DNA from: Balanoglossus misakiensis
Lineage: Eukaryota > Animalia > Hemichordata
Direction: 5' to 3'
Assembly (NCBI GenBank): GCA_040954595.2
Contig: CM082583.2
Span: 1,808,925 to 1,872,924 of the forward strand
Length of the DNA: 64,000 nt
Part shown: positions 7,328-39,800 of the stretch, piece after piece
How the letters are laid out: every line of letters begins with the position of its first letter
Numbering within the stretch: position 1 is the first letter of the stretch
The notes under the pieces: model-generated
Told to the model about the DNA's origin: nothing
Databases searched by the model: none
Seen by the model: only the letters and a program-made list of their open reading frames with translations
Position numbers and translations under genes: made by a program

Positions 7328-7357
7328 AAACACTGCTTGAATTTCTACAATTATTAA

Positions 7358-13224: not shown

Positions 13225-13344
13225 AAGCCTACGGCACGTGGTATTCCCAGGCGGTCACCCATCCAAGTACTAAGCACGCCCAACGCAGCTTAACTTCGGT
13301 GATCGGACGAGAACCGGTGTATTCGACGTGGTATGGCCGTAGGC
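13225..13344 (-). rRNA. 5S rRNA: 5S rRNA copy 8
   Basis: Full-length copy with one substitution (actaagcac). Confidence 0.94.
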
Positions 13345-14287: not shown

Positions 14288-14394
14288 AAGCCTACGGCAA
14301 GAGGTATTCCCAGGCGGTCACCCATCCAAGTACTAACCACGCCCAACGCAGCTTAACTTCGGTGATCGGACGAGAACCGGTGTATTCGACGAGG
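14288..14394 (-). pseudogene. 5S copy lacking its 5' ~13 nt and proximal upstream region
   Basis: Junction ...ttcgacgagg|aagcttcac, plus extra substitutions (cggcaagagg). Confidence 0.9.
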
Positions 14395-14632
14395 AAGCTT
14401 CACTAACACATAGGCGTACACACAGAGCACGCGGCACGATAATTGTGTGCGTGGCCAGCTGATTGACCGACCCTATCTTATAATTTATATGGGAGAGAGC
14501 GGTTTTGTCTTGTTATATCCTAGAAAAAGTGACCATATTAAAGATTTCGAGGCGACGTCGCCAGACGCGTTCCAGCGACGCGACTACATCATACACACGA
14601 GGCAACTCATCGAGTTGCCTACCGAGTTGCCT

Positions 14633-14755
14633 GTATCAGGTATGGTGCCTCATCGGCCTCATAGCGTTTAGTCTGCACAGTCTTTGTCAGCACCACGTTG
14701 CTGAAGTTGCCCGTCATCTGGAGATTTGAATGCGAACGTAACTGCCGCCTGAGCG
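14633..14755. repeat. Dispersed repeat, with related copies at ~20231-20370 and ~52462-52680 in the opposite orientation
   Basis: Shared motifs tgaggctgatgaggcaccatacctgata and gcccgtcatctgga. Confidence 0.75.
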
Positions 14756-15439
14756 GGGTTAGGGACCGTTCAGTTTTTACGGCTGGAGGGGGGGGGGGCC
14801 GGCAAGTTTGTGTCATCGGTTTTCAAAATCAGGCCGACCCCCCCTTCACCCAGCACCAAAAAATGACGACCCCCCTTTGACAGACCCAAAAATATGATGA
14901 CCCCCCCCCCACGCCGAAAACATTCACCGTCCTGATCCTATGTACACTGTATCCAATAAAGGGAATGAGGCTCCTCACACCTCAATTATATAAATTTCTT
15001 AAAAGTAATTGAAGTATATAATAGTATATCGTTGCAATAAAGAAATCTATGATCAAAATAAAATGACAAGTCAATACAATAGTTGCTAGAATTGGTGGCG
15101 GAGGTGGGCTTGGGAGGGGGTGTCCCCCTCCCACATAAGAAAATTTTGTAAAATACGGTGCTCAAAGTTGCATTTTAATGAACTCAAAAGCAAATTAATG
15201 TTAGGCCGGAAAAAAATAAATTTTGGCACTCCACTCAAAGTAAGCATCGGGGTGGGGTGGCAAGAAGTCTGCCCTGGTACACTTGACAAACCAGCGAATA
15301 AATGATATGTGGCGAAGTATAGAGGGGGTGGGTGTGGGAGGGAAACTATATTCAATTGTTCACCGTCATGGGGTGCCTTCCAGCACCAAAGTTGATGGTG
15401 GCCTACGATTGGCCGCTGCAGGGTGGTGACAGACAAATG

Positions 15440-16031
15440 TGTATAAACTGTGTTTGCAGTAGAATGGGACACCAGATAATTATGCAAAGCACAGCAGGCT
15501 AAAACAACACTTTGTACAGTGTCTGGGGGAAGATTGATTGCTGTCTGAAATATTCTAAAACCAATGGCCAGCATACCAAAAGCATTCTCAACAACTCTTC
15601 TGGCCCTGGAGAGTCTGTTATTACACAATCTCTTCTCCAAGGAAAGTTGGCGGTATGGGTATGGCATCAGCCACTACCATGTATGGCAAGCATTCGGCTG
15701 TACCAGGTAGTGGTGCAGGCTTTCGTACTTTAAGAGCATTTGTTTCCAAAGCAGATGACAAAGAACAAGCTTTATACACACCCCAATCACTAATTCGACC
15801 CTGACATCCAACATCTACATATGTAAATTTATAATGGGCATCAACAAGGCCCATTAGCACAATACTGAAAGTATGTTTGTAGTTGTCGTAAATACTCCCA
15901 CGGTTTGCTGGCTTTCTGATTACAACATGCTTGTCATCTAGGGCACCAATGCAGTTCGGAAAGTTCCATCTGTCTTCAAAGTCCTTTGCGATTTTGGCCC
16001 AATCTTCTGTTGTACTTGGAGTCTGAAACAA
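15440..16031 (-). pseudogene. PIF/Harbinger (HARBI1-like DDE) transposase fragment, copy 1
   Basis: WNFPNCIGALDDKH, NYKHTFSIVLMGLVDA.YKF, RLSRARRVVENAFGML, CCALHNY; frameshifted, with conserved Gly residues mutated. Confidence 0.9.
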
Positions 16032-17222
16032 ACATGGGATGCTAAAAAGTTAGATTCAACGATGTGCATAATGAAGTCATGTTAAATTACAGTCCTCCGA
16101 GGGCGTCATCTTCAGTCAAGCATACGCTCAACCACAGTGTTCTCCGTAAGACGAAACGTACTGACCTAAACAGTGGTTCATTTCTACAGATTGCGATGTC
16201 CTTCAATGACACTCATGATCCTGTCAATTAGATGGAGGCAGTTTTGCTGCTCAGATGTGTGCAGTTGACGCGTTACTTTTTAGAAATTGGCCACAGTGGG
16301 CGTGGCGTGTCAGCATGAACGCGCGGCAAGCCATTCCCGAACCAACACAGATATGTCAAACATTTTCCCATTATTGAGATGTGTGTTAGATCAAATGAAT
16401 GTTTAAACATAAATACAGAATGTTGTTCTGTAAAAATGTCAATGTAACAGACTGCTATTAATTTTCACTTGATATTCCGCACCTGGCAAATGGGAGTTAT
16501 TATATTTTACGTTGATTTGATTTCTTTCGCTCTTTAGGAGTCGTTCATTTCTGATGAGTGGGTATTATCCCTTCAGAACAGGAATGCAGGTAAAGAAACA
16601 AGGATGCTAGAGTTAAGTAGACGTGGCCACAGAGGCTTTTGTGCGTTCAGCCTGTACTTTGGTATTAACCCGTAGGGGACTATATCATCGGAAATGACAA
16701 TTTCATTCGCGAATGCCCGTAGAAATGCAATTCTCAACACAAATAACCACAGTTCTGAGTTTTGAAGAACGCTTCCCTTGTCAGGCAAAGGGTCGGAGAT
16801 GCACAATAAAACTTACACGAACGCGACTGTACTTTTCTACCAGGCAATGTTTACATAAAGATGAGGTGTTTAAAGGCTTACATGTTATTCGCACAAAACT
16901 GCGAGATTTGTGTCATTTTCATTTCACAAGAGCACCGAAAATATGAAAGCCTTAGTGACATTTAAATTGCTTTATTCCTTAGCACCACGTTGTTCAACCC
17001 TTATCTCCCTACGGTCTCCCTACTGACTTGACTCTTCTGCCACAGGCACTCAAACCACTGGGCTACAATACTCACATGATAGGAAAGTAAGTATGTCAGT
17101 TAAATGTGACGTTTCCATCCCCGGGAAACTATATTCAATTGTTCACCGTCATGGGGTGCCTTCCAGCACCAAAGTTGATGGTGGCCTACGATTGGCCGCT
17201 GCAGGGTGGTGACAGACAAATG

Positions 17223-17814
17223 TGTATAAACTGTGTTTGCAGTAGAATGGGACACCAGATAATTATGCAAAGCACAGCAGGCTAAAACAACACTTTGTAC
17301 AGTGTCTGGGGGAAGATTGATTGCTGTCTGAAATATTCTAAAACCAATGGCCAGCATACCAAAAGCATTCTCAACAACTCTTCTGGCCCTGGAGAGTCTG
17401 TTATTACACAATCTCTTCTCCAAGGAAAGTTGGCGGTATGGGTATGGCATCAGCCATTACCATGTATGGCAAGCATTCGGCTGTACCAGGTAGTGGTGCA
17501 GGCTTTCGTACTTTAAGAGCATTTGTTTCCAAAGCAGATGACAAAGAACAAGCTTTATACACACCCCAATCACTAATTCGACCCTGACATCCAACATCTA
17601 CATATGTAAATTTATAATGGGCATCAACAAGGCCCATTAGCACAATACTGAAAGTATCTTTGTAGTTGTCGTAAATACTCCCACGGTTTGCTGGCTTTCT
17701 GATTACAACATGCTTGTCATCTAGGGCACCAATGCAGTTCGGAAAGTTCCATCTGTCTTCAAAGTCCTTTGCGATTTTGGCCCAATCTTCTGTTGTACTT
17801 GGAGTCTGAAACAA
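17223..17814 (-). pseudogene. Harbinger transposase fragment, copy 2
   Basis: Tandem duplicate of 15440-16031. Confidence 0.9.
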
Positions 17815-19005
17815 ACATGGGATGCTAAAAAGTTAGATTCAACGATGTGCATAATGAAGTCATGTTAAATTACAGTCCTCCGAGGGCGTCATCTTCAGTC
17901 AAGCATACGCTCAACCACAGTGTTCTCCGTAAGACGAAACGTACTGACCTAAACAGTGGTTCATTTCTACAGATTGCGATGTCCTTCAATGACACTCATG
18001 ATCCTGTCAATTAGATGGAGGCAGTTTTGCTGCTCAGATGTGTGCAGTTGACGCGTTACTTTTTAGAAATTGGCCACAGTGGGCGTGGCGTGTCAGCATG
18101 AACGCGCGGCAAGCCATTCCCGAACCAACACAGATATGTCAAACATTTTCCCATTATTGAGATGTGTGTTAGATCAAATGAATGTTTAAACATAAATACA
18201 GAATGTTGTTCTGTAAAAATGTCAATGTAACAGACTGCTATTAATTTCCACTTGATATTCCGCACCTGGCAAATGGGAGTTATTATATTTTACGTTGATT
18301 TGATTTCTTTCGCTCTTTAGGAGTCGTTCATTTCTGATGAGTGGGTATTATCCCTTCAGAACAGGAATGCAGGTAAAGAAACAAGGATGCTAGAGTTAAG
18401 TAGACGTGGCCACAGAGGCTTTTGTGCGTTCAGCCTGTACTTTGGTATTAACCCGTAGGGGACTATATCATCGGAAATGACAATTTCATTCGCGAATGCC
18501 CGTAGAAATGCAATTCTCAACACAAATAACCACAGTTCTGAGTTTTGAAGAACGCTTCCCTTGTCAGGCAAAGGGTCGGAGATGCACAATAAAACTTACA
18601 CGAACGCGACTGTACTTTTCTACCAGGCAATGTTTACATAAAGATGAGGTGTTTAAAGGCTTACATGTTATTCGCACAAAACTGCGAGATTTGTGTCATT
18701 TTCATTTCACAAGAGCACCGAAAATATGAAAGCCTTAGTGACATTTAAATTGCTTTATTCCTTAGCACCACGTTGTTCAACCCTTATCTCCCTACGGTCT
18801 CCCTACCGACTTGACTCTTCTGCCACAGGCACTCAAACCACTGGGCTACAATACTCACATGATAGGAAAGTAAGTATGTCAGTTAAATGTGACGTTTCCA
18901 TCCCCGGGAAACTATATTCAATTGTTCACCGTCATGGGGTGCCTTCCAGCACCAAAGTTGATGGTGGCCTACGATTGGCCGCTGCAGGGTGGTGACAGAC
19001 AAATG

Positions 19006-19597
19006 TGTATAAACTGTGTTTGCAGTAGAATGGGACACCAGATAATTATGCAAAGCACAGCAGGCTAAAACAACACTTTGTACAGTGTCTGGGGGAAGAT
19101 TGATTGCTGTCTGAAATATTCTAAAACCAATGGCCAGCATACCAAAAGCATTCTCAACAACTCTTCTGGCCCTGGAGAGTCTGTTATTACACAATCTCTT
19201 CTCCAAGGAAAGTTGGCGGTATGGGTATGGCATCAGCCATTACCATGTATGGCAAGCATTCGGCTGTACCAGGTAGTGGTGCAGGCTTTCGTACTTTAAG
19301 AGCATTTGTTTCCAAAGCAGATGACAAAGAACAAACTTTATACACACCCCAATCACTAATTCGACCCTGACATCCAACATCTACATATGTAAATTTATAA
19401 TGGGCATCAACAAGGCCCATTAGCACAATACTGAAAGTATGTTTGTAGTTGTCGTAAATACTCCCACGGTTTGCTGGCTTTCTGATTACAACATGCTTGT
19501 CATCTAGGGCACCAATGCAGTTCGGAAAGTTCCATCTGTCTTCAAAGTCCTTTGCGATTTTGGCCCAATCTTCTGTTGTACTTGGAGTCTGAAACAA
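19006..19597 (-). pseudogene. Harbinger transposase fragment, copy 3
   Basis: Tandem duplicate of 15440-16031. Confidence 0.9.
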
Positions 19598-19796
19598 ACA
19601 TGGGATGCTAAAAAGTTAGATTCAACGATGTGCATAATGAAGTCATGTTAAATTACAGTCCTCTGACAGCATTTTCAGTTCCTTGGTTTTTTAAATAACA
19701 TTTTTTTAAATGGTGGTAAACAAACTGAATTAGCACACTTTGAATAAAAATGTCCCTGAACCGGAAAATGGTACAAGTGTATTTTGTTTTTTTCAG

Positions 19797-20216
19797 TGTT
19801 CCCAAGATTCGGATGGATCCATTTCAGAGGACCATGATGAAGTTGTAGAGAGTCAACATGTTGAACCTGGACCATCTCGCAAAAGAAAGAAGCAAGATGA
19901 TACAAGCTTTATGTTGTCCAGCATGGCTGCGGCGTGCCATAAAATTGCGAATAAAAATGAAACAACACGTTCTTCATCTTCGGATGAAGCTTTCGACAAC
20001 TATGTTGCTCGCGAGCTCGCAGCTAGCGAAAACATAAAAGCCAAAGCTTTGGCAAAGATGAAGATAACAGAGATAATTACTCAAATTTTTTGGGGGAAAT
20101 TTAATTTGCCTAGATACGAACCATTTAGATATCACACACCACCACCACCTGCCACACAAACATACCCTTCTGGCCCAACCCCATACACCAGTACCCCAGC
20201 CCACCATTCTACTTAA
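19797..20216 (+). pseudogene. Probable last exon of the Harbinger accessory (MADF/Myb-type) protein with BESS-like motif
   Basis: Acidic linker, basic RKRKK and DEAFDNYVAREL...KALAKMKITEII; adjacent to the transposase remnant. Confidence 0.55.
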
Positions 20217-21852
20217 TGCACATACACTCCTAGACAAAGACTGCACGGTGCAGACGAATTGCAATGAGGCTGATGAGGCACCATACCTGATGATACAAGT
20301 AAAAACATACTCGGAAAAACTTTTACTGGATGCCGAAATATTGCTTGCCCGTCACCTGAAAATGACAACGCGAATCAGAGCGCGATCTCAAACAGATTTG
20401 GAGAGACGTCTTGACCGTGTCTCTGAAAATCCAAAGGTCATTGACGGCGCCCTCTGGAGAGGCAACAAACGATATTGTACAACAATTGCCCAATTTGTAT
20501 GCATTGCTAGAATCTGATAAAATACGCATTATAAAATCTGTCAAGGAGTGTATCTCAAATGTTAATCAAATCTTATTTGCCAAGAACCAGACTAAGCGGG
20601 TTTTTTCCACTGAAATGACCCAGACTTTGATTATGTAAATTAGCATGCCAAAAGAGTACGTCGTTCGACGATAAAATATAGAGTCCTTCACATATTCACT
20701 GACATCCTTAATTTATTTGTGTAATTACTGATATTCGACTTCTTATGTATTAACCCGTTACTGACATTCGCCATTTCTCTCATAAATTGCATGTCAAGCG
20801 TCGCCAGCGAAAGCATGTGGTCGCTGATGGTTGAAGATGTATGTCTGCAGTTCAAATAACCGGACCAGATTGTTCGAAAAAAGTTGCAGACATGCAAACA
20901 CCCTGTTTTCTTTGGTTTGAACCCTCCTTATGACCGGCACAATCAGAAAATATAGCAATGTATATCAACACAATTAATCAAAGAATAGAAGTATAAACTA
21001 CATTGTTCCTTTTACATGCATTAATCACGCTAGGTCTACGCCTTCTGATGCGATAAGACGTATTATCGCTTACAGCCGTTCAAGATGTGTATTAAACCTG
21101 GATTGGTGGTTCATTGACCACGCTGACCCTATATAGGTGAACACGAATAAGATCAGCACTTGGTCGATTTCCGCAGGGACTCATGGCGACTCAGGGTATT
21201 CCGCAGGTATGAAGCAAATTTTTTGGTTTCCTAAGTTAGCTTTTTGTTCACAGGTCGAGGATATTAACGTCACTGACAAGCATGTTTCTGTACACTTTTT
21301 CTCTTGATCTCTCGGACAGCTCTATTATAGTACAGGGTGACTAGGATGGTGGTCAGCTGCGCTAATGTATTCACGCACGTTTTGTGATATTTTGATTCGT
21401 CCCCTGTCATTATTCACCTGACACCGTTTTGATTGCTTCAAATGCAAATATGCAAGTCCACATTTCCCCCGGCGATTTCAACGCGCCAGTACGCTCGACG
21501 TAGCCTGTCTGAAAAAAAACGCCAGCTTCGGGCTGTTCATTTCCATTATGATGCATCAAGGTCGTCAGAATAACACGAGAAAACTGACCCAATTCAAGGC
21601 TAGGATTGCCACAACAAAAACAGCGATAAGAGCTGACTAAGTGCCATAACTCTGCAAGTCCCATTGTCATTCATCGTTGATTTATTACTGACAACTCAGT
21701 GATATACGACTACAGTCACCTTCAGCTATACCGAGTTTCTGAGTACATGTACCTCTAGTACCGACACCTTAACGCTGGTGTGACTGACTGAGGTCGAGCA
21801 AAGTTCACAGCGGACGTATTACCACTGATCAGTAAAATTCAATTTCTTTCAG

Positions 21853-24800
21853 GCGCCCGCATACGATGAGGGAGGCACAGAACCAAAAGAGAAGGTACAT
21901 CTTAAACCCGCGCTGTCAAAATCCTACAGTGGAGGAGACGGGGAGAAAAGTACCCAGGCTGCTGAAGGGAAAGTGTATGTCTACACATCCTGGCAAACCT
22001 GCGTTGTCGCTACCCTATTCTTCTGTCTCTTTTCCGCCGCAGTTGTCATGGCAGTGGTTCTGATACGTAAGCTCTTATAGTTCATTGCTTTTAACGCGTA
22101 AGCTATATGTTGACGATAGACACATCCATGTACAACAGTGACCTAAACGCAGCAAACAATTTCTTTTTATTTATATTCTGAACGCACGCTAGAAGGCTTG
22201 ATCTGCTTGTTCAGACCATGATGATAAATTTCTTGAATTAAAATTGTTCAATACTCTTTAAGGTCAAAGTGGATGTGGAACTTGAGCACGGAAACCACCT
22301 CATATTATATTCTTCCTAGCGGATGATTTAGGTGAGCACGTGATACAATTTATCGCACACGCTACATAATTGTTCTCGCGAGACACAGTTAGTGACCAAG
22401 CTTCTATATAATGGTATGTCAGATTCATTTCTGGACAAAGACAAAGTTAAAATCTTACATTATTCCTCGATTTGGTTTTGAGGTGAGTTCCAGTCGTTAG
22501 GTAAATCTGATTACAAACAACAACAACAAGTATGATTGATCATCATTAAGTACTTGTACTTCCCCGCTTTATTCATTTCAGGTTGGTACGACGTCGGTTA
22601 CCATAATCCAGAAATGTGTACACCGAACATGGACAGGCTCGCCTCCGAGGGCGTCATCTTCAGTCAAGCATACGCTCAACCACAGTGTTCTCCGTAAGAC
22701 GAAACGTACTGACCTAAACAGTGGTTCATTTCTACAGATTGCGGTGTCCTTCAATGACACTCATGATCCTGTCAATTAGATGGAGGCAGTTTTGCTGCTC
22801 AGATGTGTGCAGTTGACGCGTTACTTTTTAGAAATTGGCCACAGTGGGCGTGGCGTGTCAGCATGAACGCGCGGCAAGCCATTCCCGAACCAACACAGAT
22901 ATGTCAAACATTTTCCCATTATTGAGATGTGTGTTAGATCAAATGAATGTTTAAACATAAATACAGAATGTTGTTCTGTAAAAATGTCAGTGTAACAGAC
23001 TGCTATTAATTTCCACTTGATATTCCGCACCTGGCAAATGGGAGTTATTATATTTTACGTTGATTTGATTTCTTTCGCTCTTTAGGAGTCGTTCATCTCT
23101 GATGAGTGGGTATTATACCTTCAGAACAGGAATGCAGGTAAAGAAACAAGGATGCTAGAGTTAAGTAGACGTGGCCACAGAGGCTTTTGTGCGTTCAGCC
23201 TGTACTTTGGTATTAACCCGTAGGGGACTCTATCATCGGAAATGATAATTTCATTCGCGAATGCCCGTAGAAATGCAATTCTCAACACAAATAACCACAG
23301 TTCTGAGTTTTGAAGAACGCTTCCCTTGTCAGGCAAAGGGTCGGAGATGCACAATAAAACTTACACGAACGCGACTGTACTTTTCTACCAGGCAATGTTT
23401 ACATAAAGATGAGGTGTTTAAAGGCTTACATGTTATTCGCACAAAACTGCGAGATTTGTGTCATTTTCATTTCACAAGAGCACCGAAAATATGAAAGCCT
23501 TAGTGACATTTAATTTGCTTTATTCCTTAGCACCACGTTGTTCAACCCTTATCTCCCTACGGTCTCCCTACCGACTTGACTCTTCTGCCACAGGCACTCA
23601 GACCACTGGGCTACAATACTCACATGATAGGAAAGTAAGTATGTCAGTTAAATGTGACGTTTCCATCCCCGGGAAACTATATTAAATTTATGGAGTGTAA
23701 TTCATGCCAAAATTAGCACCAAGCTTTTCGATGAGAACACCCTCTTTTCGATTAAAGAGCGCCCCTCTTTTCGATGAGAGCACCCTCTTTTCGATGAGAG
23801 TACCTCAGCTTTTCGATTACAGTATTCACTTTTCGATGAGAACACCCTCTTTTCGATTAAAGAGCGCCCCTCTTTTCGATGAGAGTACCTCAGCTTTTCG
23901 ATTACAGTATTCACTTTTCGATGAGAACACCCTCTTTTCGATTAAAGAGCGCCCCAGACGCCCTAGTTCACTGAAGAGTTTTTACAACTTGGCCCGCTGG
24001 CGTTTTGCCTACGTCACAACGCGTCATGGCTACGTCACAACGCGTCACTGGAATTTCCATCAAATTTATAGTAATATGCTAGGGAGATCAGTAAACCGGA
24101 AGGTCAAACTTTGACCATGTGCATGGGAAACGGCTTCAAAACACGAACCGTTCACCGTGTTGACGCCAGGCCGGAGAAGTGGTTCAGCAGAGAACAAAAC
24201 CGGCCAGTAGATTGAGGAAAATAGCACAGAATCTCGAGTTCATGGAATCTGAGCTAACTTTGCGAAACATGGCGATACCATTATTAAAATAGGGGCCAGT
24301 CATCAAGACGGTGGCGTATGATTTTTTTAAAAGTTTCCAAATTAAAACGTAAGCGAGCCAAGAAAACTACAGGTCAGATAAATTGTTTTCTCGGAAATTC
24401 AACATTAGAATCAAATTTGGCGTTGGAAACAAACGGCGGGTCACCAGTTCCTGGTCTGCGGCCTGGTACTAGTGGTTGCGCGCCAAAAAAGAATCCCGCC
24501 CCAAAAGGTCAATGTACGAGTATATTCACAGGGCGAAGGATTAGTTGAAACAAATCAGTAGTGTCTGTAAGCTTTCGAGGGTCAAACACTGATGGGTATG
24601 GCAAGTCTCAGGGGTCTTAAGTATAGCAATAGTAGTATTTAATGTTGAAGTAGTACGATTATATTTTGATTCGTTAATATATTATAAATAAATAGTAGTA
24701 TTTAATGTTGAAGTAGTACGATTATATTTTGATTCGTTAATATATTATAAATAAATAGTAGTATTTAATGTTGAAGTAGTACGATTATATTTTGATTCGT

Positions 24801-27800
24801 TAATATATTATAAATAAATAGTAGTATTTAATGTTGAAGTAGTACGATTATATTTTGATTCGTTAATATATTATAAATAAATAGTAGTATTTAATGTTGA
24901 AGTGGTAAGATTATATTTTGATTCGTTAATATATTATAAATAAATAGTAGTATTTAATGTTGAAGTAGTACGATTATATTTTGATTCGTTAATATATTAT
25001 AAATAAATAGTAGTATTTAATGTTGAAGTAGTAAGATTATATTTTGATTCGTTAATATATTATAAATAAATAGTAGTATTTAATGTTGAAGTAGTACGAT
25101 TATATTTTGATTCGTTAATATATTATAAATAAATATTAGTATTTAATGTTGAAGTAGTACGATTATATTTTGATTCGTTAATATATTATAAATAAATAGT
25201 AGTATTTAATGTTGAAGTAGTACGATTATATTTTGATTCGTTAATATATTATAAATAAATAGTAGTATTTAATGTTGAAGTAGTAAGATTATATTTTGAT
25301 TCGTTAATATATTATAAATAAATAGTAGTATTTAATGTTGAAGTAGTACGATTATATTTTGATTCGTTAATATATTATAAATAAATAGTAGTATTTAATG
25401 TTGAAGTAGTAAGATTATATTTTGATTCGTTAATATATTATAAATAAATAGTAGTAGTATATAATGTTGAAGTAGTACGATTATATGACACTTTGCAAGT
25501 ATTATTATTATTTACTTGTTTACTACCTCACTAGAGGGCGCACAATTTTATTGTCGGCCATTTTCTGTTTGTTTTGCGCGTCTCTGGCAGTCGCAGTCGA
25601 AAGAGATGAATATCGAGGCAATTTTGCAGGAGATAAATTTGGCAACGTTGGTAGAGAGGTTCAAATATCAGCGGGTTGAAGCTGCCACCGTTCTTTAATT
25701 ACCCATTAATATCTTATAGGTCCCTTTATTAAATACATATTGTGGGTGCATTTCATGTGAATTCCCAGAATGCATCACCAACATAAAGGAGCATGCTCCA
25801 TGACCTATGACAATCTACTGGTAAATCCATGCTCCTTGGACAGGCCTTTGGAAACAAGTATTCTGTAAAATGGATCTAAACATTTCTGAGATGGCAAAGG
25901 TATTACTGAGTTTGAATTTGGGTAATTTAATAGATACGTTTGAGCAGGAGAACATTACTCCAGACATTATCTGTAAATTATCAAGCGTTGATTTCCAAAC
26001 ACTTGGAGTGAATAATTCACGGGATGTCATGGCTTTGCGCACAAAGTGTACTCACTATGGATCTAAAGTACCAGTGAAAGTACAAGTAGGATGTGGTCCA
26101 CCACAATTCTATATACCAAAGGCAATCCTACAGAACCACCTAGAAGAAGGATTCCTGGTAACTGAGATTGCATCAATGTTTGCCGTTTCCAAAAGTACTA
26201 TTATTCGTAGAATGCGGGTTTATGGACTGAGCAAAATGGATTTTGCAGATATTTCTGATGGTGACCTTGACATTCACGTTAATGAATTGACACAAGAATA
26301 TCCTTTCTGTGGTGAGAATATGCTAAGGCACCTCCTTACAGAAAAATTTGGGATAAAGGTGCAGAGGATGAGACTCCGTGATAGCATTCATCGGATAGAT
26401 GATGCTGGCATACAAGCAAGAAAGAACAGTCGATTAAGGCGCCGGGTATATAATGTAAAAGGTCCGAACCAGTTGTGGCATGTGGACACTAATCATAAAC
26501 TGATACGATGGGGCTTTATCATACTTGGTGGTGTTGATGGCTTCAGCCGTTTACCTGTCATGTTGGAGTGTAAAGACAACAACAGGGCAGCAACTCTTCT
26601 AGAGTGCTTCAAGACTGCAGTTAAAGTTTATGGCCTTCCCAGCAGAGTGAGATCGGACATGGGACTGGAAAATGTAGACATAGCCGACTTCATGCTACAA
26701 AAACGTGGTACAAATCGAGGTAGTATGATAACTGGTAAAAGCGTACATAACCAGAGAATAGAGAGGCTTTGGCGCGATGTGTTTGAGGGTGTTCTTGCCT
26801 TGTTTCATCAACTGTTCCATTTTATGGAAGATAACAGTATTCTAGACCCTTTCAAGCCAAGTCACCTTGCTGCTCTCCATTACATCTACCTTCCAAGAAT
26901 AAATGAGAAATTAGAAGTGTGGAGTAGGGCTTGGGGCAACCATAGAATGCGCACAACACGGTCATCACCACTGCGTTTATGGATTTCAGGCCAGCTGCAA
27001 AATCCCGTTGGTGTCCAACTATCAGCAGATGATATCACAACCTATGGTGTAGAAGGTATTGTAGATGATCATGACGGCGGTGCTGATGAAAGACCGATAC
27101 TACAGCCAATATCCTTTGAACTAGGTGAACAATGCTTGGAGGAACTCATGCAGCGTGTACCAGCAACCCGGCCAACAAATAATTATGGCATTGAATTATA
27201 CCAGAGTGCCTTACAAATAATTAATCACTATCATGCCAATATCCAGTAGAACACATGAGTTTGTTCCAACAATACAAACACAAGATCTATGACAAAACCT
27301 TCCCTTAGTTTCTCAATAATCTTCAGTGCTTTTCTTGTTTCTCGTATACACTTATACTACAATTTGGCACACACAAAATCAAAGAAAGCGTTATGTCTGA
27401 CACAACTGTTAGGAAACACACGAGTTGGGAGTTGACCAGACACCTAATCAGCTATATACTTAGGCATATCATTGAGTATATTGGTACTTTGCTCGGCAAT
27501 CACCCACAAGTTTGTTTATTTCTACATGGAACTCAGAGACACTCACTCCATGGGTAGCACTCTAATACACACACAGTTGTGTGTGTATTAGTCTGACTTC
27601 CATGTAGAAATAAATAAGTGTATGAGTGATTACCAGGCAAAGTTTCAATATACTCCACGATACGATACGGCTGATTAGGTGTCCAGCCAAGTCGCGTGTT
27701 TCCTGTAACATTACAATAATTAATGTATCTGCCAAAAAGTGTTGTCTTGGCGCTACAATACCGGTAGAAGGCAACTTGATGGGCAGGTATTTATCTCATG

Positions 27801-30800
27801 CAGAGACAATGTGAAAGTAGATATTTGAATAGAAATTATATTGCAATAGAGAGACAACAGCTAGTTGATAAATCTCTTGTAGAACTCATTAAGTATTAAG
27901 TTTATTGATCAAATGTTAAAATTTATTGCAACTTTTGAAATAATTTAAATAACATGCACAGTGCCAATTAGCCACTTTCTAGTCACTATATCCCCCCAAA
28001 AACAACACACAAAGAAAACAGGCTGTCCACATTGTTTTGTTCACTAGTAAGTAACCAGGAATTTTTCCATTTTAAGGCAAATGTGACAAATGAACATGGA
28101 GTAAACATTTGCTCCAAAAAACTGTACACTGTAATGCGAGAAGGAAAATTCTCATGAAAGACTTCAACCCATATATTCCATGAATACTTTTCATATCTGC
28201 TTTAATCCGGCTGAGTAGCTCTGTTGCTCTGAAATGTATTTGGGAGAACTTGTGAGTTCTGAAGCCTTATGTGTCACTTTTCTTTTCATGCAAATGTGCT
28301 ATGCTGTTACTGTTTTCATAAGGCAGAGTTACCTTTGTTTTACATCCATTCTAAATTTTGCAAGTAGCTAACTATATAGTTAAAAACAGTTAAACAAAGC
28401 TTTTGCATGTACTAAGTTTCACATTTACTTGATTGGTTCCAAGTAGTATGATTGTGAAAGTCATTGAAACATCAAATTAAATCCTTTACTCTTCAATTGT
28501 GTGCATTGCAGTGTGACATTTATCATCCATACACATCTTTCAAGAACATATTACAAGTCATCGTTGATGACACAGTCCCCCTCTTGTCGAAAGTGTTATA
28601 ATCTTTGGTGTCTAGGTTACTGTAGGATGACATTGATGCAACTTGTGTGAGGACTGTAACATGCAAAATAAAGTAATCTGAGCATCATTTAATAAATGAC
28701 CTGTTGGTCACATCATGTTGATCATATCATAAAATAAATTGGCATGGTATTTTATCTTAGTGCCAAGTTTTAACAAAATTGGCTCAGGGAAGTTTGAATT
28801 ATGCTTCAAAGACATAAAATATCGCATGCATGACTGTCAGGCCTCATATTGGATGATACTGCAAAATAAATCAACATGCCTATGAATGCCAAAGCGCCTC
28901 GTCTGCGGGGACTAATAATCAAACCCTAGTTGTGGAAAACTACCTTGAATGACACTCTTGGTGACATGGCAACTAATCTTAGTTCCAAGATCATCTTGAC
29001 ATTGTACCTTGTACAAGGGACAGAAGCTCTGGCATTCTGGTTCACAATCTTATCCAAATACTAGGTGACCAAAACACAACTGCAAATTTGCACACAATAA
29101 CTGAAATGGACCTTAACACACACATAGTTATGTTTCAATGTTTGTCATCAATTTTTGTTTTCATTTTTAGGGCCCCAAGTATATGCAGGACTAAACATGT
29201 AACAATAACAATAATATTTTTATTGAGAATTCAGAAAAAACTACTAACACTTGCATGCAATTAAAATGATTATTTATGCTGTTCAAAGTTGACATTTTGT
29301 TGGACAACACAGAAAAATTTGGAAACTCGCTTTCCTCATAAGGAATGCATAGCACTGATTGTGCCTACCAGTGTGAGCGTACCCAGGTGTCTGAGACTGT
29401 CAGTAATAATTTCCCATTTTTAGTGTTGAACCTCTCTACTATCCTTTAAATTTTAAACTGTAATTGACATATGTGCTTGTATTTATACAACCACAACATG
29501 TAGATGTGTTCTGACATCCAACAAAATTTCAACTGTGTGCAACCTTAGCAATTTCAGAAAATTTCGTAACTTCCCAATCCATACATTCGCTTGAAAATCT
29601 AGGCCTTTCCTGCAGGTTGAAAGTATGACAATAGTAAAGCGTGATAATATTTAACAATTTTAAAATATTTCAAAATAGGTTGGATTTAGCAATAAAGTGA
29701 CATTTGATAACTCGTCCCAAATAGTCAGTGTCTTTAAGCCACAGTAGCTGTAACTTTTGATGGTATTTTTTTGTTGGATGACATGACAGAAAAGGTAGTA
29801 GAGACTATGTGGAAACCATGTCTTCTAAGTCTTGGCTCAAGAAACAAAGATTATATTTAATCCACACTCATTATCAATTTGAGAGGATATTATAATACCT
29901 ATGAGCCCAAGTTGACTCCATTGAATTTTTTTGTCAACATCACTGAATTTCAGTCTGTTCAGAAATTAGGAAGTGATATGTAACAAATATAGGGGAAAAA
30001 ATTCTCGAAAATTGCAGCTACTGTCCCTCAAAAATATTATATAACGGAATTTGTTATGTACCTATGGAATCTCTTATTGCGGAAATGTATCTTTGCATGT
30101 CCAGACACATCTGCAGAACAGCCTCAGACATGAACAAAATGGAAACCTTGACGGCGCCAAGTTGCCACATTAAAATATTAACAAAATCAAGACATTTATA
30201 TGTAAGCTTGAGTGTTATCTCCTTATGTCAACTAAAAAAGTCTTAGGTCATCACAATATATTAATAGCTCCAGACATAAAATACAGTTACAAAGTGGCCA
30301 TGCAGAAGCCATACTTTGGGGTTATTATGAAAATACACCAAAGTATGCATGAGGATATAATCACATTGCACTGCCCGATGCCCGATGTAATGCACAGCGT
30401 AGCGGAGGGGGATGCGCCATGCTAATGACCTCATTGGCTGTACTTTTGAAATAACCTTATTATTATAAATCACTACTTTGTTTTTACTTTTGTTTATGCA
30501 AATACAAACTTATGTTATGTGACAACGGCTATGAGTACGAGTCGAGGTCTAGTGGGAGACACGTGCGATGAAAATTTTGGTATTCAGCCATCAGTTCATA
30601 CAAAGTGCGCGTCCACACACCAGGTGCAGATGACAGATTGGTAAAAATTTAACACTAGTGTACTCATTCCATCTTCATCAGAGATATTTTTCTCGAGATT
30701 AATATTGTACCTCTGAGTACCTCAAAACTGCCGGAAAAGTGTTAGCGATGTCGGCATAACAGTGGGTATTTAGTGTCACCCAATTTTTCTTTTGTTCTCG

Positions 30801-33800
30801 GTGGCAGATATATAATAATGGGTCATAATCACAAAAACAATCATCCAGCATGTATAAGCCATAAGGTGTTATCCTTGTGCCAAATTTAAAGTAAGCTGAC
30901 ATGCCTGAGAAATTTTTTTGACCAGATTGTACTGATAGGACAGATGCACAGACGGACAAGTCTCAAGGTAAACGCCCCAAGACAAGACATCGTCCATGGG
31001 GACCAGTATGTCTGTAATAACTGTTGTCAACTAAACTATAAGAAAAAATGCTAAATCTCTAGTTCATCTATCAAAATTTTGAAATGCTTATCCAGCACAA
31101 ATAAATTTATCATCCATACAATTAAAATAATAGTAAAAGGTGTAACAGACAATGGCATAAAAACACACCTTGTGAAAATGTTACGTGTCATAGGCAGTGT
31201 TACGTAGATTATTAGGTCAGTCACTGCTGCAATGCTTTACTGACCTCAGAAGAGGAAAACAATCATATTTAGTAACATTGTAGTTATGTTGGTTTATAAT
31301 GGCCTTTTGCAACAGATGTTTGTTGCACACCTGTTGCAAAAGAAATCAACATCACCGCAAACATGAACACTTATCGGTTATGCCACAAAGGTCATGGATC
31401 ACAAAATATTAAAATATTTGTGACAGTATTCCTTTAAGGGCCATGGATAATGAAAACATGCGCATGGTAAATGTAACTGGTTGAACTGTGTCCCTGTCCC
31501 CCCCCCCCCAAAAAAAAATACAAAAGAATTTGGAAGTGTAAAAATCACTCGTGCCCCAGCCCTGACCCTGACTAAAATCAATGTCTTTGTTCAGTGCCAA
31601 CTCAAACTCACAATCGACGATAACACAATAGTTAACCAATAAAATTAAATTAAATGAAAGTGTATCCAATTCCAAAATGATTGTCTATTTTGACAGGTGC
31701 ATTGAACAACATCATTCATGTCATGTTTGTGTATTACCAGTTTTGCACTGGCCTGCCACACCAAAAATAAGATAGCGCAATTTTTTGTGATACATATAAA
31801 CATGGAGCACGACAGTAATTGCCATATAACAACAGGTAGTGCAATTTGTGCCCACAGTAATCGAAATACAGACAAATTTAAATCCCTCCCGACAGTGCAC
31901 AAATTGCACTTACGGTGCACCTGTTTTAATTATCATGGACCCTTATGGGATAAGCTCTGTCACTGACAGCCTAGCTAAAACAATAACTGAAATGAAAAAA
32001 AAACAAGTTATAACTAGGATTACATAGTATAAGACTGATATATGAAACAGAATTATGGTATTTATTATCCGGATCCTGCTTCACCTATCGGATGTACATA
32101 GCCTTTATGTATAATATATACGGTGTATGCCACAAATGAATACAATTCTTCTTTATAACAAACTTCTGATGCTTGGCATAAAAAATACTGCCAATACACC
32201 TTTTTCATAAGTCTAAAATTTGACTTATTAGGTCAACTGAAAGCGAGGCCACTGGGGAAAATCTGTAATTAGCAACAACGCATAGTTATTAGCTGTTCAT
32301 GGCGCCAAAGTCAATATTTTTCAAATGCTTTGTTTGGCACTGCCTATAAACTTTGTGCACAGCTGATAATTATGCATTGCTGCTGGTGCTTTCCCCAGTG
32401 GCCTCGCTTTCAGCTTGACCTAGGTCAAATTCTAGACTTATGAAAAGTGTGTGTAGACTATTTCATGACTCCTGAATGACCTCACATCCTGGCCTTTTTG
32501 GTGGTATGGCATACATTGACTGCTTCTCCCATATGTAACAGATTAAATCTCATGTTTTGTTCAAGGACGATTTTGAATGCGTGATCAAATTTTTTGGTCG
32601 ACTGTTACAGGGATTGAACTTACAATGTAAAACTCATACCAAGAGAAAATCCATGATGCAAAGGTCACTCAGGGCTCATGAAAATAGCCTATAAGACGGT
32701 GCCGCTCCCACATGATCCGACTTATTTTATACAGGAAATCTTGGTTGGTTAGCCCATGGTGAACTGCATAAAAAGTCAGTCTACTTGATTCTGAGATGTT
32801 GTAGCTAACAAATATGGGAAAATTACCCTGAAAATAAACTTAGCAAGTAGAAATTTGCCTATCTTGTACAAGGGTTAAACCTTGCAGATTACATGCTTGT
32901 CAACTGTTAAAATTTTGTCATCCAAACTTGAAATGTTGTGACGGTCAGCGGTCGTCACTGCAGAAATGTAACGATGGCTTTGTGAACTGCAAATGTCTAT
33001 TTTGAAAACAAATTGCTTCTGTTCCTTACACATTTCCAAAAAAGTTTTGAGAAAATGCAAGATCATACAATTCAAAAAGTTTTTCTTTTTGGGGCATTTC
33101 ATTTGCAGCGCTGGGTCGTGGTAACTGCAAACAGTTGCTACATGTGTTGGCCATTGGTAGAAATGAATACTGCTGTGGAGGAAATACAATTCTCGGATGT
33201 ATGACAAAACCCAAGAGTGGTTCTTCATCAGTTCCAGTTACAAACTGTAACACACGGGACAGTGAGAGTTGTTGTCGTCTACCACCTGGTAACATAATAT
33301 AAAAATACATAAAACTTACTAATTTCAAAACATCTACATGTAGATTTTTAAATCACACTGCTGAAATTTTGTGGCTATTGTCTCAGCCCGTAGTTGTAAA
33401 CACACCATTTTCACTAACAGCAAATAAATGCCCATCAATGACATGAGTATTCTACTTGGTACATTCTAAAACATGTGTATGACAGTGTAAATATTTTTCT
33501 ATTAAAGGGACAAAGTCTCCATTTTTGAACTTTTTGTGATATCAAGAATACAGGGAATACTTGCATAAAGTCACTCAATGTGCAGAATAATGTCAGTACA
33601 GAACCTCAAGTGTCAGAAATTACTCCTTTGCCGTACGTAAAGTAACAATTTGTGTGTGACGTCTACATGAAATGAACTGCTCCATCCAAAGTCTGTTTCC
33701 TTCGCCAAATAAACACTGCCACAACAGTGTACACGACAGCTGTCAGTATCATATCCACATGAAAGGAACTCACAATCTGAGATATCATTGCAAGCCCTAT

Positions 33801-36800
33801 GTGGTCATAACATTATGTAATATTGCCTATCTTGTCTCATTCATTGATGAAAGTTCATCCAACAATGAATATCTGGTACAGACGAGTCTTTTGAATTGTC
33901 TATCTATTAGCAGAATAGAGATTGTGTACAGTTAATAGCCAGTATATCAGCATGTTTCAAGTAGTCAAACAACTTGAGCAGCTCTTGATATCAAACACAA
34001 TCAATGAAAAAAGGTAAAAAAAGAGAGACTTTGTCCCTTTAATGTAATAAACACATAAGTGTTCAGAAAAACAATCTCTAGTTCTTTTCTTATTCATGTG
34101 TACCAACACTGTTTTTCTATTTGGAACAATCCACATAACATTCACTTACTTGCTACTTCCCTAATGTAATCCAGGAACATGGCATATACAGCTTTCTCGT
34201 ACATTCTTACATTTGAACCTTCAGCTCCTGAATAGTCTGGTTTTAGCAATTCTTTAACCTTCTTCACTGTTAGAGCAGATGCTGGATTTGGTTGCAAGAG
34301 ATGTTTAAATGTTGGTACTAGACAGCACAGCTGTGAAAGACAATCAATAACAAAGAAAAGTGTGAGATAAATTGCATCACTTAGTGTGGTGTGCAATATA
34401 GTCATCAACCTGTAGTGAAAATCATGATACCTAAATCAAATGAAATCATTTAAAGGGGCATGTTTGATCCTCAGAAATTTTTGTGGAGTGTACATTGGTA
34501 AAGTTCAAAATACAGCTTTCCAACTGGTTAAATATGTATTGATTTTCCTTCGATGTTCACAGACAATTATGACTCTGAAATGTATGAAAAAGGGTGCGTA
34601 AAACATACCTGGTATATCCCCAACTTAGAGAGACCATTGCGCAGATTGCGCACACATTCCGAAGGATCAGTGCTTTTGATTACATCGTCAAGGACAGTAG
34701 GATTCATAAACTGTGGTAATTTACCATTTTGTAGCATACTAAGACCTGTGAAAAGATATTACCCAAATCAATTGTTATTATTAAACATGTTACTGGTAAC
34801 TATACGAGTAGATTATTTTCAAATGGATGCCAGTTTTTAAAATATTACTTTGAACATATTTGTACACTACATTGGCATACACTGCACACAACATATAATT
34901 GTAAACTTTATACAGTGAAGTCTAAGTTATCAGACCATCTTACCCATTATAATTCCAATGGAGTGGTAGTCTTGGGACAGATGTTCTTTCAGACCATCAT
35001 CAAAATATTTGGCTTTAATTTCCCTCAAGACAAGCACAAAGAATTCCTTCCTTGGCCCACCGTAATCTGCTGCTCTCTGTTGGAAACAACATATATGACA
35101 AATTTTATATCAGTTCCCCCTTAAATGATACACATTGTAAACATTTGAATGTTTCTTTTTTGTGTGGTATTTGATTGACTGTAAACCGGATTATTGGAAA
35201 GGCAGCACCACAAACTGAAACTATAGCGTGACTGACAAATGATTTTGTGTATAGAAATTTGTTGCAGTTATTTTTTCTATTTCTTCTGATCGATAATTAA
35301 TGGGACACTGACAGTGGAGCTGAAAGAATTTAAGCAGCATGTTTTCTGCGGTAATGAATTATCCTTACTTGAAAGTTATCAACCAAGGCATGGTGGAGAT
35401 ATCTGCACATGCAGATCGATTTATGGATTATAGCCAAATTTAAGAGCCTCCATCTCAGCAGGAACAAAAAGCAATCCAACTTAATAGATGGATATTACTG
35501 CAAAATATTGTAAGTTCAAGGTTTTGTAAACCATGTATGTATGTACACTAAGTACTGTACAGCCACGTTTATCTCCTCAAACAGCATTGTACAATCAATA
35601 AATATAGAACAAAAGCTTACCTCATCATAAAACTGCACCTCGAGTGTCAGTCGGAGATCATCAATATCTCTTATTTCGGAAAATGCTGTTGCAAGGATGT
35701 CATCCCTATTGATCATTATAAAATTTGTCTCGCCTTCAAGCTCTTCAGCTTCATTCTCCACATCTAGCGCTCTCCCTTTTACCATTACTTTTTGGTAATA
35801 TCTAAGCACTTCAACAGGATTGTTAATGAAACCATGCGTATTACAGTACATCACTGCATTTGCCACAATGTTGTCAACACTGTTTGCTGCTTCAATCACT
35901 TCAACCACGGGTGCTTCAACACTTTCCTCAACTCCCTGTACTGTTTCTTCAACTTCAACAGTGTCATCAACTCTATCTACTGTATTGGTAGGTGTCGCAG
36001 GTCTTTCTTGAATATTGATTGGTATCTGAAAAATATATGAGGAATTTATGATTTATTTTTTATTATTTATTCTTCATTTCCCCTCACAACAGCAACATAA
36101 GACAACAAGTATTGGCTTGCGGTTGGTGTCTTGTAAATATGCAAGGCTGGAAACTAAATTTTTAGACTAGTAATCCATTTGGGCCTCCGTTTTCTGTAGT
36201 TGGTTGCCCAGTGGCAACATGAGGTAGCCCATACATAATGTCACATGTTCCATGATAAGTGTATTTTTCACTGGGAATGATATTTTTTCCATCAACCAGA
36301 TACAAAAAGATTTGTTTTTCATGACTGCATATGAATTAAATTTTCTAGTTATTGATATGAATACCTGGCAGCATAGCCTTTAGCAGACTAGGTGGCATCC
36401 AAAATTTTGATGACCTATTTCATGCCATATGCAGAGCTTATATGCAAATTTTGATATTTGCGTTGACAACGACCACAGCAATCAGGTTGACATAACAAAT
36501 CAGAGCATGGTTATCAGTGTTTTCTCCAGCATTTTGAGACAAGGGGGGAATGTCCCCCACTGGGGGGATTTGGTTGCAAATGAGGGGGACTATAATACAT
36601 TATGCAAGTTTAAATTATGCAAATTAAGATTTTTGGGTTTTGTCAGTTCTTAAACGGGTGAATTTAAAGTACACTATTACTTACGACATTCTCTGATGCT
36701 GATTCCTCTGTCGCATGACTGACGTTCCTCCGAGTTGCCGGGTTTTCATCCTCTGAGTCTGAATCGCTACTAAATGGTGCGCAAGTCCACAGATGATGTC

Positions 36801-39800
36801 GTAGTTCACGAACGTCAAATTCTTGGAGACAGCCACTACACTTTTCTTTGATTGTGGTTAAAGGGTCGTCTGCAACAAGGGGTTTCGTTGACAGGTTTCT
36901 CTGGATTGGTCGTAGGTATATTTTAATTTGAGGTCCGACATTTACTTTCAAATCCGAAACACGCCATGGACAATCGATTATCTGGAGTGTCTTTACCCCC
37001 GGACCTACACATCGAAGCATTTCAAACCCCCCACAGTCACGTAGCTGTGGGAAGCCTACGAAATCGTTACTTCCGTCTTGCATTCGTTCGTCTGACGTCA
37101 ACGTTTTGATCATATCTTGGGCACTGATATCCGCCTCAAACTGTATTTTTCGGAAGCCCAGTCCTGCCTTTTGCAGAATGTCTTTTTCAGCTTGTGTAGG
37201 CACAGTGTTTTTGGTGCGGTCGGCCAAACATACGAAGTGGCCAGTCCACGTACGTTTCCTCACTTTCCCTTTATGACGTTCCCGGGCCTTACTCTACAAG
37301 GCCCTGTCTGGGGGCGAAATAGTAAACGGCGTTCGGCCTGAATATCACCTACCAAACTTTCAACACCAGAAGAACGTGACATCTGGGCCTGATCGGACAT
37401 GGCCGACGGCTGAGTTGCTTCCTTGCAAAGGTCTCGGAGTCGCACTCGATCACCTACTCTTGTAACTCCCAATCTTTTTAATTCCCCTTCCGTCATGGAA
37501 AGAACGGTGGCAGCTTCAATCCGCTCATACTTGAACCTCTCTACCAACGTTGCCAAATTTATCTCCTGCAAAATTGCCTCGATATTCATCTCTTTCGACT
37601 GCGACTGCATGCCAGAGACGCGCAAAACAAACAGAAAATGGCCGACAATAAAATTGTGCGCCCTCTAGTGAGGTAGTAAACAAGTAAATAATAATAATAC
37701 TTGCAAAGTGTCATATAATCGTACTACTTCAACATTAAATACTACTATTTATTTATAATATATTAACGAATCAAAATATAATCGTACTACTTCAACATTA
37801 AATACTACTATTTATTTATAATATATTAACGAATCAAAATATAATCGTACTACTTCAACATTAAATACTACTATTTATTTATAATATATTAACAAATCAA
37901 AATATAATCGTACTACTTCAACATTAAATACTACTATTTATTTATAATATATTAACGAATCAAAATATAATCGTACTACTTCAACATTAAATACTACTAT
38001 TTATTTATAATATATTAGCGGATCAAAATATAATCGTACTACTTCAACATTAAATACTACTATTTATTTATAATATATTAACGAATCAAAATATAATCGT
38101 ACTACTTCAACATTAAATACTACTATTTATTTATAATATATTAACGAATCAAAATATAATCGTACTACTTCAACATTAAATACTACTATTTATTTATAAT
38201 ATATTAGCGAATCAAAATATAATCGTACTACTTCAACATTAAATACTACTATTTATTTATAATATATTAACGAATCAAAATATAATCGTACTTCTTCAAC
38301 ATTAAATACTACTATTTATTTATAATATATTAACGAATCAAAATATAATCGTACTACTTCAACATTAAATACTACTATTTATTTATAATATATTAGCGAA
38401 TCAAAATATAATCGTACTACTTCAACATTAAATACTACTATTTATTTATAATATATTAACGAATCAAAATATAATCGTACTTCTTCAACATTAAATACTA
38501 CTATTTATTTATAATATATTAACGAATCAAAATATAATCGTACTACTTCAACATTAAATACTACTATTGCTATACTTAAGACCCCTGAGGCTTGCCATAG
38601 ATGGGGGTAAGAGTAGTAGGTATATATAGAAACACATGTAACTCACACAACACAGTATCATTGTCGAAATTTCTTCATTATCTTAATTGCAATTCATGCC
38701 TCCCCGCCTTGTGGTATTTAAGGAAATAGTGTCAGTTGCTGCCGCATTTTGAAGTTTCGATCTTTTGTGGTTTCGTTGTGCGCGCGCGTATATTCACTGT
38801 AGCAGTTTGGCATGAATCGTTTGTGCGAAGAACAAAAAATTCTTAAAGAAAAAAAACAGTTGACAAATCGCTAAAAGTTAGTTACTAGGGCTTAAGAGTT
38901 TTGTATATTTATTTAACAGGGTTCGAAATTAAGCTTCGCCCGATTGCCCGGAGCAACTATATAATGATACACGGCAAGTAAATTGTCAACCTTAAATACA
39001 GAAGCTTTTTTTTGAAGGGCAAGCCACGCGGTTCTAAAATAAACTTCCATAACAACATGTACACTTGACGCGTTCCAGTCGAAGCAGACCTAAAATGTAT
39101 CAATTTGTAAGCATTAAATTAACCCATTCAAAATATTCAAATTAGAAAAAGACGCATATGCATTCTTGGCGTCCCCAGAGACACACAAACGCAAGTGCGG
39201 CCGGACACAAGATGAAAGCGATGATACGGGGGGGGGGGGGGGGGGGGGTCGGCAACGGTCCACTTTGTGCAGTGAACTCACGTTGATCTTTGCAAAATAA
39301 ATGACGTTATTTTCTTGTAAAATCCAACCCGTGCATTTGATCACTGGGCTACGTCCACGACGCGACGCGTCGACGGCAAACAAATTGGGCGTCCACACTG
39401 TCAAAGTTTCAAAACTTTAAACTTCCGGGTCACCGCTATAAGACCCCCTAAGCTCACCCCCAGTAGACCTGACATACTCTAATCGAAAAGCTGTGCGTCC
39501 TCATCGAAAAGCTTTAGCGCTCTGATAGAAAAGCTGGGTGTTCTAATCGAAAAGCTAGGTGCTCTTATCAATAAGCGGGCGCCCTCATCGTAAAGTGGGG
39601 GTGGTAACTCTGATCGAAAAGCTGTGTGCTCTGATGGAAAAGTGAATACTCTGATCGAAAAGCGCGAATACTCTCATCGAAAAGCTGTGTGCTCTGATGG
39701 AAAAGTGAATACTCTGATCGAAAAGCGCAAATACTCTCATCGAAAAGTGAATACTCTCATCGAAAAGCTGTGTGCTAATTTTGGCATGAATTACACTCCA

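Follow-up and report, generated by a model that had tools for sequence, protein, structure and literature searches.

A two-gene IS3EU-type transposon of Balanoglossus misakiensis with a SAM-domain transposase and a convergent SAM-HECT gene

The element and its two genes

The stretch of DNA analysed here, hereafter the window, comprises 64,000 nucleotides of the hemichordate Balanoglossus misakiensis (assembly GCA_040954595.2, contig CM082583.2, positions 1,808,925 to 1,872,924 of the forward strand), and the coordinates below refer to it. It contains a 14-kb element (24597..38599) which starts with TATGG, ends with CCATA and is flanked by two copies of the target-site duplication (TSD) GATGGG; two fixed positions would share six bases by chance in roughly 1 of 4000 cases. 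The element is an IS3EU/GingerRoot-type cut-and-paste transposon with two convergent genes of its own, one for a transposase and one for a HECT-type ubiquitin ligase homologue (hereafter the ligase). It has the published hallmarks of this group, namely TA..TA termini, a 6-bp TSD and an integrase-like DDE transposase without the HHCC zinc motif, the first catalytic Asp (D206) being within the reported range of 100-300 residues from the N-terminus (PMC10045372; PMC6839031). A preliminary description of the locus had proposed the IS3EU-type identity, the TSD and near-identical terminal inverted repeats (TIRs) of 1.1 kb, all of which agree with the termini, flanks and transposase type found here. 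The features of the element are as follows.

24591..24596, no strand: left TSD GATGGG, directly outside the left terminus
24597..25696, plus strand: left TIR, 1100 bp, with the TATGG end, 63-bp repeats, a putative promoter and 5' untranslated region, and a copy of the ligase gene start
24628-25486: 63-bp repeat, 13.6 copies, in the left TIR
25606..25698, plus strand: 30-codon open reading frame (ORF) at the left TIR's inner end, upstream of the transposase ATG; copies the ligase SAM start in truncated form
25870..27249, plus strand: intronless transposase, 459 aa, with SAM (residues about 4-63), helix-turn-helix (HTH) region and DDE core
27250..33025, no strand: middle region, 5.8 kb, containing short inverted repeats; a third gene was not detected
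33026..33285, minus strand: ligase exon 6, with the HECT C-lobe, the catalytic Cys codon (33140-33142) and the stop
34150..34330, minus strand: ligase exon 5
34609..34745, minus strand: ligase exon 4, spanning the site of a missing N-lobe block
34944..35076, minus strand: ligase exon 3, with the GGPR motif of the HECT N-lobe
35621..36025, minus strand: ligase exon 2, with an acidic linker and the start of the HECT N-lobe
36685..37610, minus strand: ligase exon 1, with SAM, ERRLLF segment, predicted ubiquitin-like domain and C2HC finger; one-base frameshift
36781-36840, minus strand: C2HC zinc finger in exon 1
about 36901-37251, minus strand: predicted ubiquitin-like domain in exon 1
about 37422-37589, minus strand: ligase SAM in exon 1
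37499..38599, minus strand: right TIR, 1101 bp, with the ligase start codon, its first 37 codons and 63-bp repeats
37713-38568: 63-bp repeat, 13.6 copies, in the right TIR
38600..38605, no strand: right TSD GATGGG, directly outside the right terminus

The two TIRs are about 98% identical (1079 of the 1097 bases aligned). In each, the 63-bp repeat makes up about 860 bp, and the inner ends run into coding sequence, namely the start of the ligase. Since the right TIR contains the ligase start codon and the first 37 codons, the left one has a truncated 30-codon copy of them. The left TIR lacks four bases relative to the right, among them the first ATG of the ligase, and the 30-codon upstream ORF that remains could dampen translation of the transposase. 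The promoter role of the left TIR is putative, from its position. Between the two genes, none of the 52 stop-to-stop frames of at least 45 aa matched Pfam at E 0.01, a search which short exons could escape. Short inverted repeats occur at 27467-27662 and 32196-32446, and those at 33501-34043, inside intron 5 of the ligase, have a very high read depth and are likely a nested miniature inverted-repeat element.

The transposase matches the Pfam family rva_4 (E 3e-78) and is of the DD34E type, with the catalytic residues kept in nearly all of 96 aligned transposases (D206 in 96, D263 in 96 and E298 in 95), as expected of the intact 459-aa DDE ORF proposed before. Retroviral integrases and IstA were the top structural matches of its fold, and the N-terminus consists of the SAM plus HTH. 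Its homologues number 2781; of the best 120, those with a name belong to corals and bivalves at 49-59% identity. No difference in the ORF was listed between the window and the majority contig.

The ligase gene lies convergent to the transposase on the minus strand and has six exons, all introns being GT..AG, as proposed, with the catalytic Cys likewise in place (residue 643). The gene is not intact in the window copy, a point absent from the preliminary description: its spliced coding sequence is 2042 nt long, which is no multiple of 3, with a change of frame near 37283, within exon 1. One extra base near that position is present in contigs of two DNA runs, both of a single sample which may be the source sample, and restores a 680-aa frame. 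As the extra base is present at full depth in both runs, the majority form of the ligase is open, and the window copy carries a private mutation or an assembly error. A programmed -1 frameshift or a 59-nt intron was considered for the frame break and rejected, because both runs show the extra base and the homologues read straight through.

The element is real and has been recently inserted or active. In run X1 its interior was recovered as 2.4-3.0-kb contigs which differ from the window at 2-5 places and have a depth of 106-125, compared with 23-27, and in some cases about 41, for exact-match flank contigs. This suggests roughly 4-5 near-identical haploid copies, depth being a rough guide rather than a copy number. 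The much greater depth of the contigs over the TIR and the SAM start (587-1135) is a hint of non-autonomous derivatives; one high-depth contig of the left-TIR type runs further into the SAM-coding sequence. Neither another insertion site nor an empty site appeared among the read contigs listed.

Occurrence of the gene pair in relatives

Homologues of the ligase were found in cnidarians, molluscs and Ptychodera (best identity 47%), and the gene is multi-copy in Hydractinia and Ostrea. In the coral Desmophyllum, where pairing was judged by accession adjacency, two of the six named members of the transposase cluster are paired: transposase KAJ7386861.1 with ligase KAJ7386862.1, and KAJ7371302.1 with KAJ7371301.1, in both cases consecutive accessions on contigs of equal length. 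Both proteins of the first pair have a SAM. Eight of the 21 metagenome loci extend at least 600 bp past the transposase, and four of these eight hold a convergent last HECT exon with the Cys motif. Among the 13 loci labelled as prokaryotic, which come from metagenome-assembled genomes (MAGs), six have about 10 kb of sequence downstream; one of them (L023) is paired, another (L031) has a weak match on the same strand and four showed none. No relative was found in the viral contigs.

The L023 locus (L023:9232-16538) holds a complete relative of 7307 bp. This element begins with TATGG, ends with CCATA, has TIRs of 394 bp and a separate 6-bp TSD, and carries a ligase gene convergent to its transposase gene. 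Its contig is labelled as a Nitrospirales MAG, while containing spliceosomal introns, and the bin probably holds eukaryotic DNA. The L023 ligase has a full-length HECT, and neither of the two proteins has a SAM; the N-terminal region of the transposase looks helical by eye and that of the ligase is short, likewise in other SAM-less relatives. The L023 transposase lacks two residues before its first catalytic Asp, the ligase gene has a 184-bp internal duplication, and a second pair of inverted repeats (94%) lies around the element at 7645-8266 and 17394-18017. All thirteen prokaryote-labelled contigs (L022-L034) contain eukaryote-type transposases, several with introns, and they are probably mis-binned eukaryotic DNA or host contamination, which could mislead studies of cross-domain transfer.

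The last exon of the ligase, compared with those of three paired relatives, gave proportions of nonsynonymous differences (pN) of 0.32-0.40 and of synonymous differences (pS) of 0.66-0.79, the latter near saturation, and on these values it is evidently under purifying selection. Pairing in divergent relatives, together with pN below pS, indicates a partnership with the ligase that is old and under selection, confined to part of the lineage and not universal. Its proposed role as a stable second gene has therefore held, and the opposite possibility, a HECT gene present only in this copy as neutral cargo, failed on the metagenome, Desmophyllum and L023 pairs. Co-divergence of six gene pairs (Spearman 0.73) is given no weight, as the pairs are not independent and the value is driven by L023.

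The SAM domains and the shortened HECT

Both N-termini, previously described as SAM-like, are five-helix SAM folds with structural Z values of 8-9 to several SAMs, which disposes of the possibility that they belong to some other fold. The ligase SAM is recognized by Pfam SAM_1 (E 2e-07). That of the transposase is weak alone (E 0.083), and among the 96 family members SAM_1 was found in 20 and SAM_2 in 22 at E 0.01. The transposase model aligned with the Shank3 SAM (VIA Z 9.1, root-mean-square deviation (rmsd) 2.5, 62 aligned residues), and the SAM of P0169, the homologue whose structural model stands for the ligase here in place of the window protein, with tankyrase 1 (VIA Z 9.4, rmsd 2.1, 59 aligned).

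The two contact faces of the SAMs were located from tankyrase, whose contact residues at the mid-loop and at the end-helix (PMC4980433) were transferred to aligned SAMs of 95 transposases and 44 ligases; these sequences are related and some of the mapped columns are partly buried. In the transposase SAMs, the mean column entropy was 0.84 for the mid-loop and 2.05 for the end-helix face, whereas in the ligase SAMs the corresponding values were 1.64 and 0.87, compared with about 1.6 over all SAM columns in both proteins. The contrast between the faces differed from random column sets with a permutation p of 0.00035, or 0.0004 after thinning at 70% identity (59 + 31 sequences). An end-helix Gly is present in all 44 ligases and 2 of the 95 transposases, and a mid-loop Asp in 90 of the 95 transposases and 7 of the 44 ligases; in a wider set of ligase-type SAMs the Gly was found in 76 of 79. 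The window's own two proteins have the same pattern. Such complementary conservation is what would be expected of a one-to-one SAM heterodimer, and it lends indirect support to a SAM-SAM contact between transposase and ligase, although either face could have a partner in the host instead.

The SAM profiles of the two proteins match each other with an hhalign probability of 99%, the cross-profile medians being 22.6 and 27.6 bits versus 23.8 and 33.7 bits for the best PDB SAMs. When the ligase SAM was compared with 1.84 billion representatives, its best 150 matches included a few host-type SAM proteins and no transposase; four apparent transposases turned out on inspection to be ligase-type fragments. 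Copying of the transposase SAM from the ligase SAM through the TIR is thus not supported. In the three elements with both N-termini readable (the window, Desmophyllum and L023), the SAM is present either on both proteins or on neither. Because the distant L023 pairs both genes without a SAM in either, the SAM is best seen as a probable add-on in one clade and not as the basis of the gene pairing. It may have replaced an older docking pair, which is a lead only, given three readable elements.

The domain order of the ligase is SAM, a short ERRLLF segment, a predicted beta-grasp domain, the C2HC finger, the acidic linker and HECT. Pfam HECT matches exon 6 (E 3e-08), and the HECT fold of the P0169 model gave VIA Z 21.1 to UBR5 and 15.1 to E6AP. 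The C-lobe is complete, with UBR5, HUWE1 and HERC5 as the structural matches of the model, and among the full C-termini inspected, which had been selected for a HECT C-terminus, all 31 have the catalytic Cys. The N-lobe's large subdomain is present as well, as seen from profile similarity to AREL1, E6AP and NEDD4 around the GGP motif and a structural alignment over model residues 378-550. Compared with solved HECT domains, the N-lobe lacks about 85 residues in all; aligned with L023, about 9 residues are lost after the GGPR helix and the remainder as one block between two conserved N-lobe helices. From its position and the general topology of HECT domains, the missing block appears to be the small subdomain which binds the ubiquitin-conjugating enzyme (E2), the small N-lobe subdomain hosting the E2 site in NEDD4 (PMC3077247). 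The protein is therefore apparently HECT-like at its catalytic end, yet without one defining feature of the canonical HECT ubiquitin ligases (E3s). Origin of the deletion together with the gain of the SAM was rejected, as SAM-less homologues (P0200-P0203) have the short HECT too. These four have a helical-looking N-terminus and represent a natural control set for the docking idea.

The middle domain, a predicted beta-grasp fold, has a high-confidence model, folded together with other parts of the protein, which gave Z 8.0 (rmsd 2.6, 80 aligned) to the ubiquitin-like domain of TBK1 and 7.1 to Ufm1; the matches agree with each other, while their Z values are middling. This domain, the N-lobe deletion, the opposite conservation of the two SAM faces and the pairing of the genes without a SAM in L023 did not feature in the preliminary description. 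The finger, on the other hand, did: its Cx2Cx11Hx3C spacing is present in the window ligase, and 51 of 58 homologues fit Cx2Cx11Hx3-5C. Its assignment to the UBZ4/Rad18 type is not supported beyond this spacing, as zf_UBZ matched one of the 58 homologues and other C2HC families scored better (zf_C2HC_14 in 11, TRAFD1-XIAF1_ZnF in 8). In UBZ4 fingers an Asp following the His contacts ubiquitin; between the His and the last Cys of the window finger there is none.

Working model, alternatives and known counterparts

The two genes would be transcribed inward from the same TIR-borne promoter, and the ligase would dock on the transposase through an end-helix-to-mid-loop SAM heterodimer. Taken alone, this docking step is fairly probable. 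Offering the mid-loop face only, the transposase SAM would cap a SAM polymer rather than extend it. With the usual E2 site apparently lost, ubiquitin would have to be taken up by a non-standard route, through the ubiquitin-like domain, the zinc finger or a host adaptor, and its acceptors would be the transposase or proteins where transposition takes place. The most likely use would be to mark the stable post-integration transpososome for removal, thereby limiting the transposase dose. The whole chain, from SAM docking and ubiquitin transfer to transpososome clearing and a dose cap, is put forward tentatively, as plausible but somewhat short of probable.

Several observations weigh against this model. 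No ligase was detected at four of the eight testable metagenome loci and at four of the six long MAG-derived loci, and no accession adjacency was found in Pinctada, Mytilus or Paramuricea, for which few proteins are listed. The ligase of the window copy is frameshifted. The distance from GGP to Cys is 193 residues in the window ligase (median 192 in 33 sequences) versus 275 in E6AP, 286 in AREL1 and 276 in L023, and with the presumed E2-site block missing, ordinary E3 chemistry is in doubt. Moreover, the partner of the ligase's conserved end-helix face could be a SAM of the host, or the mid-loop face of the ligase itself, which is partly acidic, and the substrate is a guess.

Regarding the substrate, the ligase might dock on the transposase in the same manner and ubiquitinate host chromatin, repair or silencing proteins, so as to ease integration or escape repression, a role also proposed for TET/JBP or kinase cargo in fungal IS3EU elements. 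The SAM-face evidence fits this as well, and the kinase and TET/JBP genes of rust IS3EU elements (PMC12730594) make host-modifying partners a habit of the group; still, no chromatin substrate-binding domain was found in the ligase, the Pfam domains of most of the 58 homologues being limited to SAM, C2HC finger and HECT, and we regard such a host-directed role as rather unlikely. The shortened N-lobe beside a complete C-lobe, and the position of the E2 site in the small subdomain of NEDD4 (PMC3077247), raise the further question of whether the protein is a conventional E3 at all. It might serve the transpososome as scaffold or accessory subunit, or else use the Cys in another manner, as a trap or decoy for ubiquitin. 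Retention of the Cys motif and the C-terminal Phe in cnidarians, molluscs and a hemichordate, and a full-length HECT at the same gene position in L023, which makes the ancestor look like a normal E3, render this improbable. Of similarly low probability is that the SAMs do not touch each other, each binding a host SAM or its own kind after separate captures or TIR copying. This would agree with the host-type proteins, and the lack of transposases, among the best 150 matches of the ligase SAM and with pairing of the genes in L023 without a SAM, whereas conservation of the two faces is complementary, not parallel, and the SAM occurs in both or neither protein of the three readable elements. These three alternatives are not mutually exclusive. 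Finally, neutral cargo lately captured from the host, with which the frameshift in the window copy and the relatives without a ligase would agree, is nearly excluded and contradicted by the co-occurrence data: position and orientation are the same in divergent elements, pN is far below pS, the majority contigs have an open frame and the start codon lies inside the TIR.

Compared with GingerRoot, the element shares, besides the termini, the TSD and a DDE transposase without HHCC, an HTH-like region before the core and a marine-animal host. It differs in the SAM on the transposase, in the HECT-type second gene and in the TIRs, which are 100-150 bp long in GingerRoot versus 1.1 kb of 63-bp repeats enclosing the start of the second gene here. 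Rust IS3EU families have TAYGG..CCRTA ends, a 6-bp TSD and an alpha-kinase gene opposite to the transposase, plus a TET/JBP gene (PMC12730594). The common trait is thus a protein-modifying enzyme encoded in opposite orientation; in the present element the partner is a HECT protein instead of a kinase, no third gene was found and both proteins have a SAM. Since fungal IS3EU elements carry the kinase and Styx elements several extra ORFs (PMC10853768), a second gene as such is already known. With the canonical HECT E3s (E6AP, the NEDD4 family, AREL1, UBR5) the ligase shares the HECT fold, the GGP motif and the catalytic Cys motif, while its N-lobe is 82-93 residues shorter between GGP and Cys, the SAM, the predicted ubiquitin-like domain and the C2HC finger stand in front, and the gene is transposon-borne and multi-copy. 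The five-helix SAMs resemble those of tankyrase end-helix/mid-loop assemblies (PMC4980433), the transposase matching tankyrase over the mid-loop half and the ligase matching Shank3 at the end-helix entry LGVTRVG; in contrast to such assemblies, each of the two proteins appears to hold one of the faces, from which a heterodimer is predicted rather than a polymer. The words 'HECT' and 'ubiquitin' are nowhere in the main text of the two GingerRoot/IS3EU papers compared, and a literature search, with Repbase Reports and the Kojima 2019 review outside it, found no paper joining IS3EU with HECT or SAM with a DNA transposase; either of those two sources may already mention the HECT gene. What the window adds is the split of the SAM faces between two proteins, the N-lobe deletion and the TIR enclosing the ligase start.

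Outside the element, the window contains a tandem 5S rRNA array (1-14700, eight Rfam matches), interrupted at about 1331-5441 on the minus strand by a DIRS-like retroelement with ORFs for reverse transcriptase, RNase H, a Dam-like methylase and a tyrosine recombinase. A Harbinger-like DDE_Tnp_4 fragment lies at 15089-15673, tandem repeats of 1783 bp within 15089-23000, and LINE-type reverse transcriptase ORFs at 54546-56603 on the minus strand.

The model is concrete and testable, involving named residues on two small domains and a 680-aa enzyme. MuA-ClpX represents remodelling of a transpososome by a host-supplied factor, and should the ligase dock on its transposase, the transposon would encode a counterpart of its own. 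A short HECT that proves active would define a minimal HECT and an unfamiliar route of ubiquitin loading. The broadest form of the claim, that a widespread clade of animal DNA transposons is a two-subunit machine with a SAM heterodimer and a minimal HECT which still transfers ubiquitin without the E2-binding subdomain, is possible, if somewhat unlikely; if true, it would mean a new way of charging the HECT cysteine, and many 'uncharacterized HECT/SAM' genes of invertebrates would be transposon subunits rather than host ligases. For annotation, the multi-copy SAM-HECT genes of corals, hydrozoans, molluscs and a hemichordate may be genes of mobile elements.

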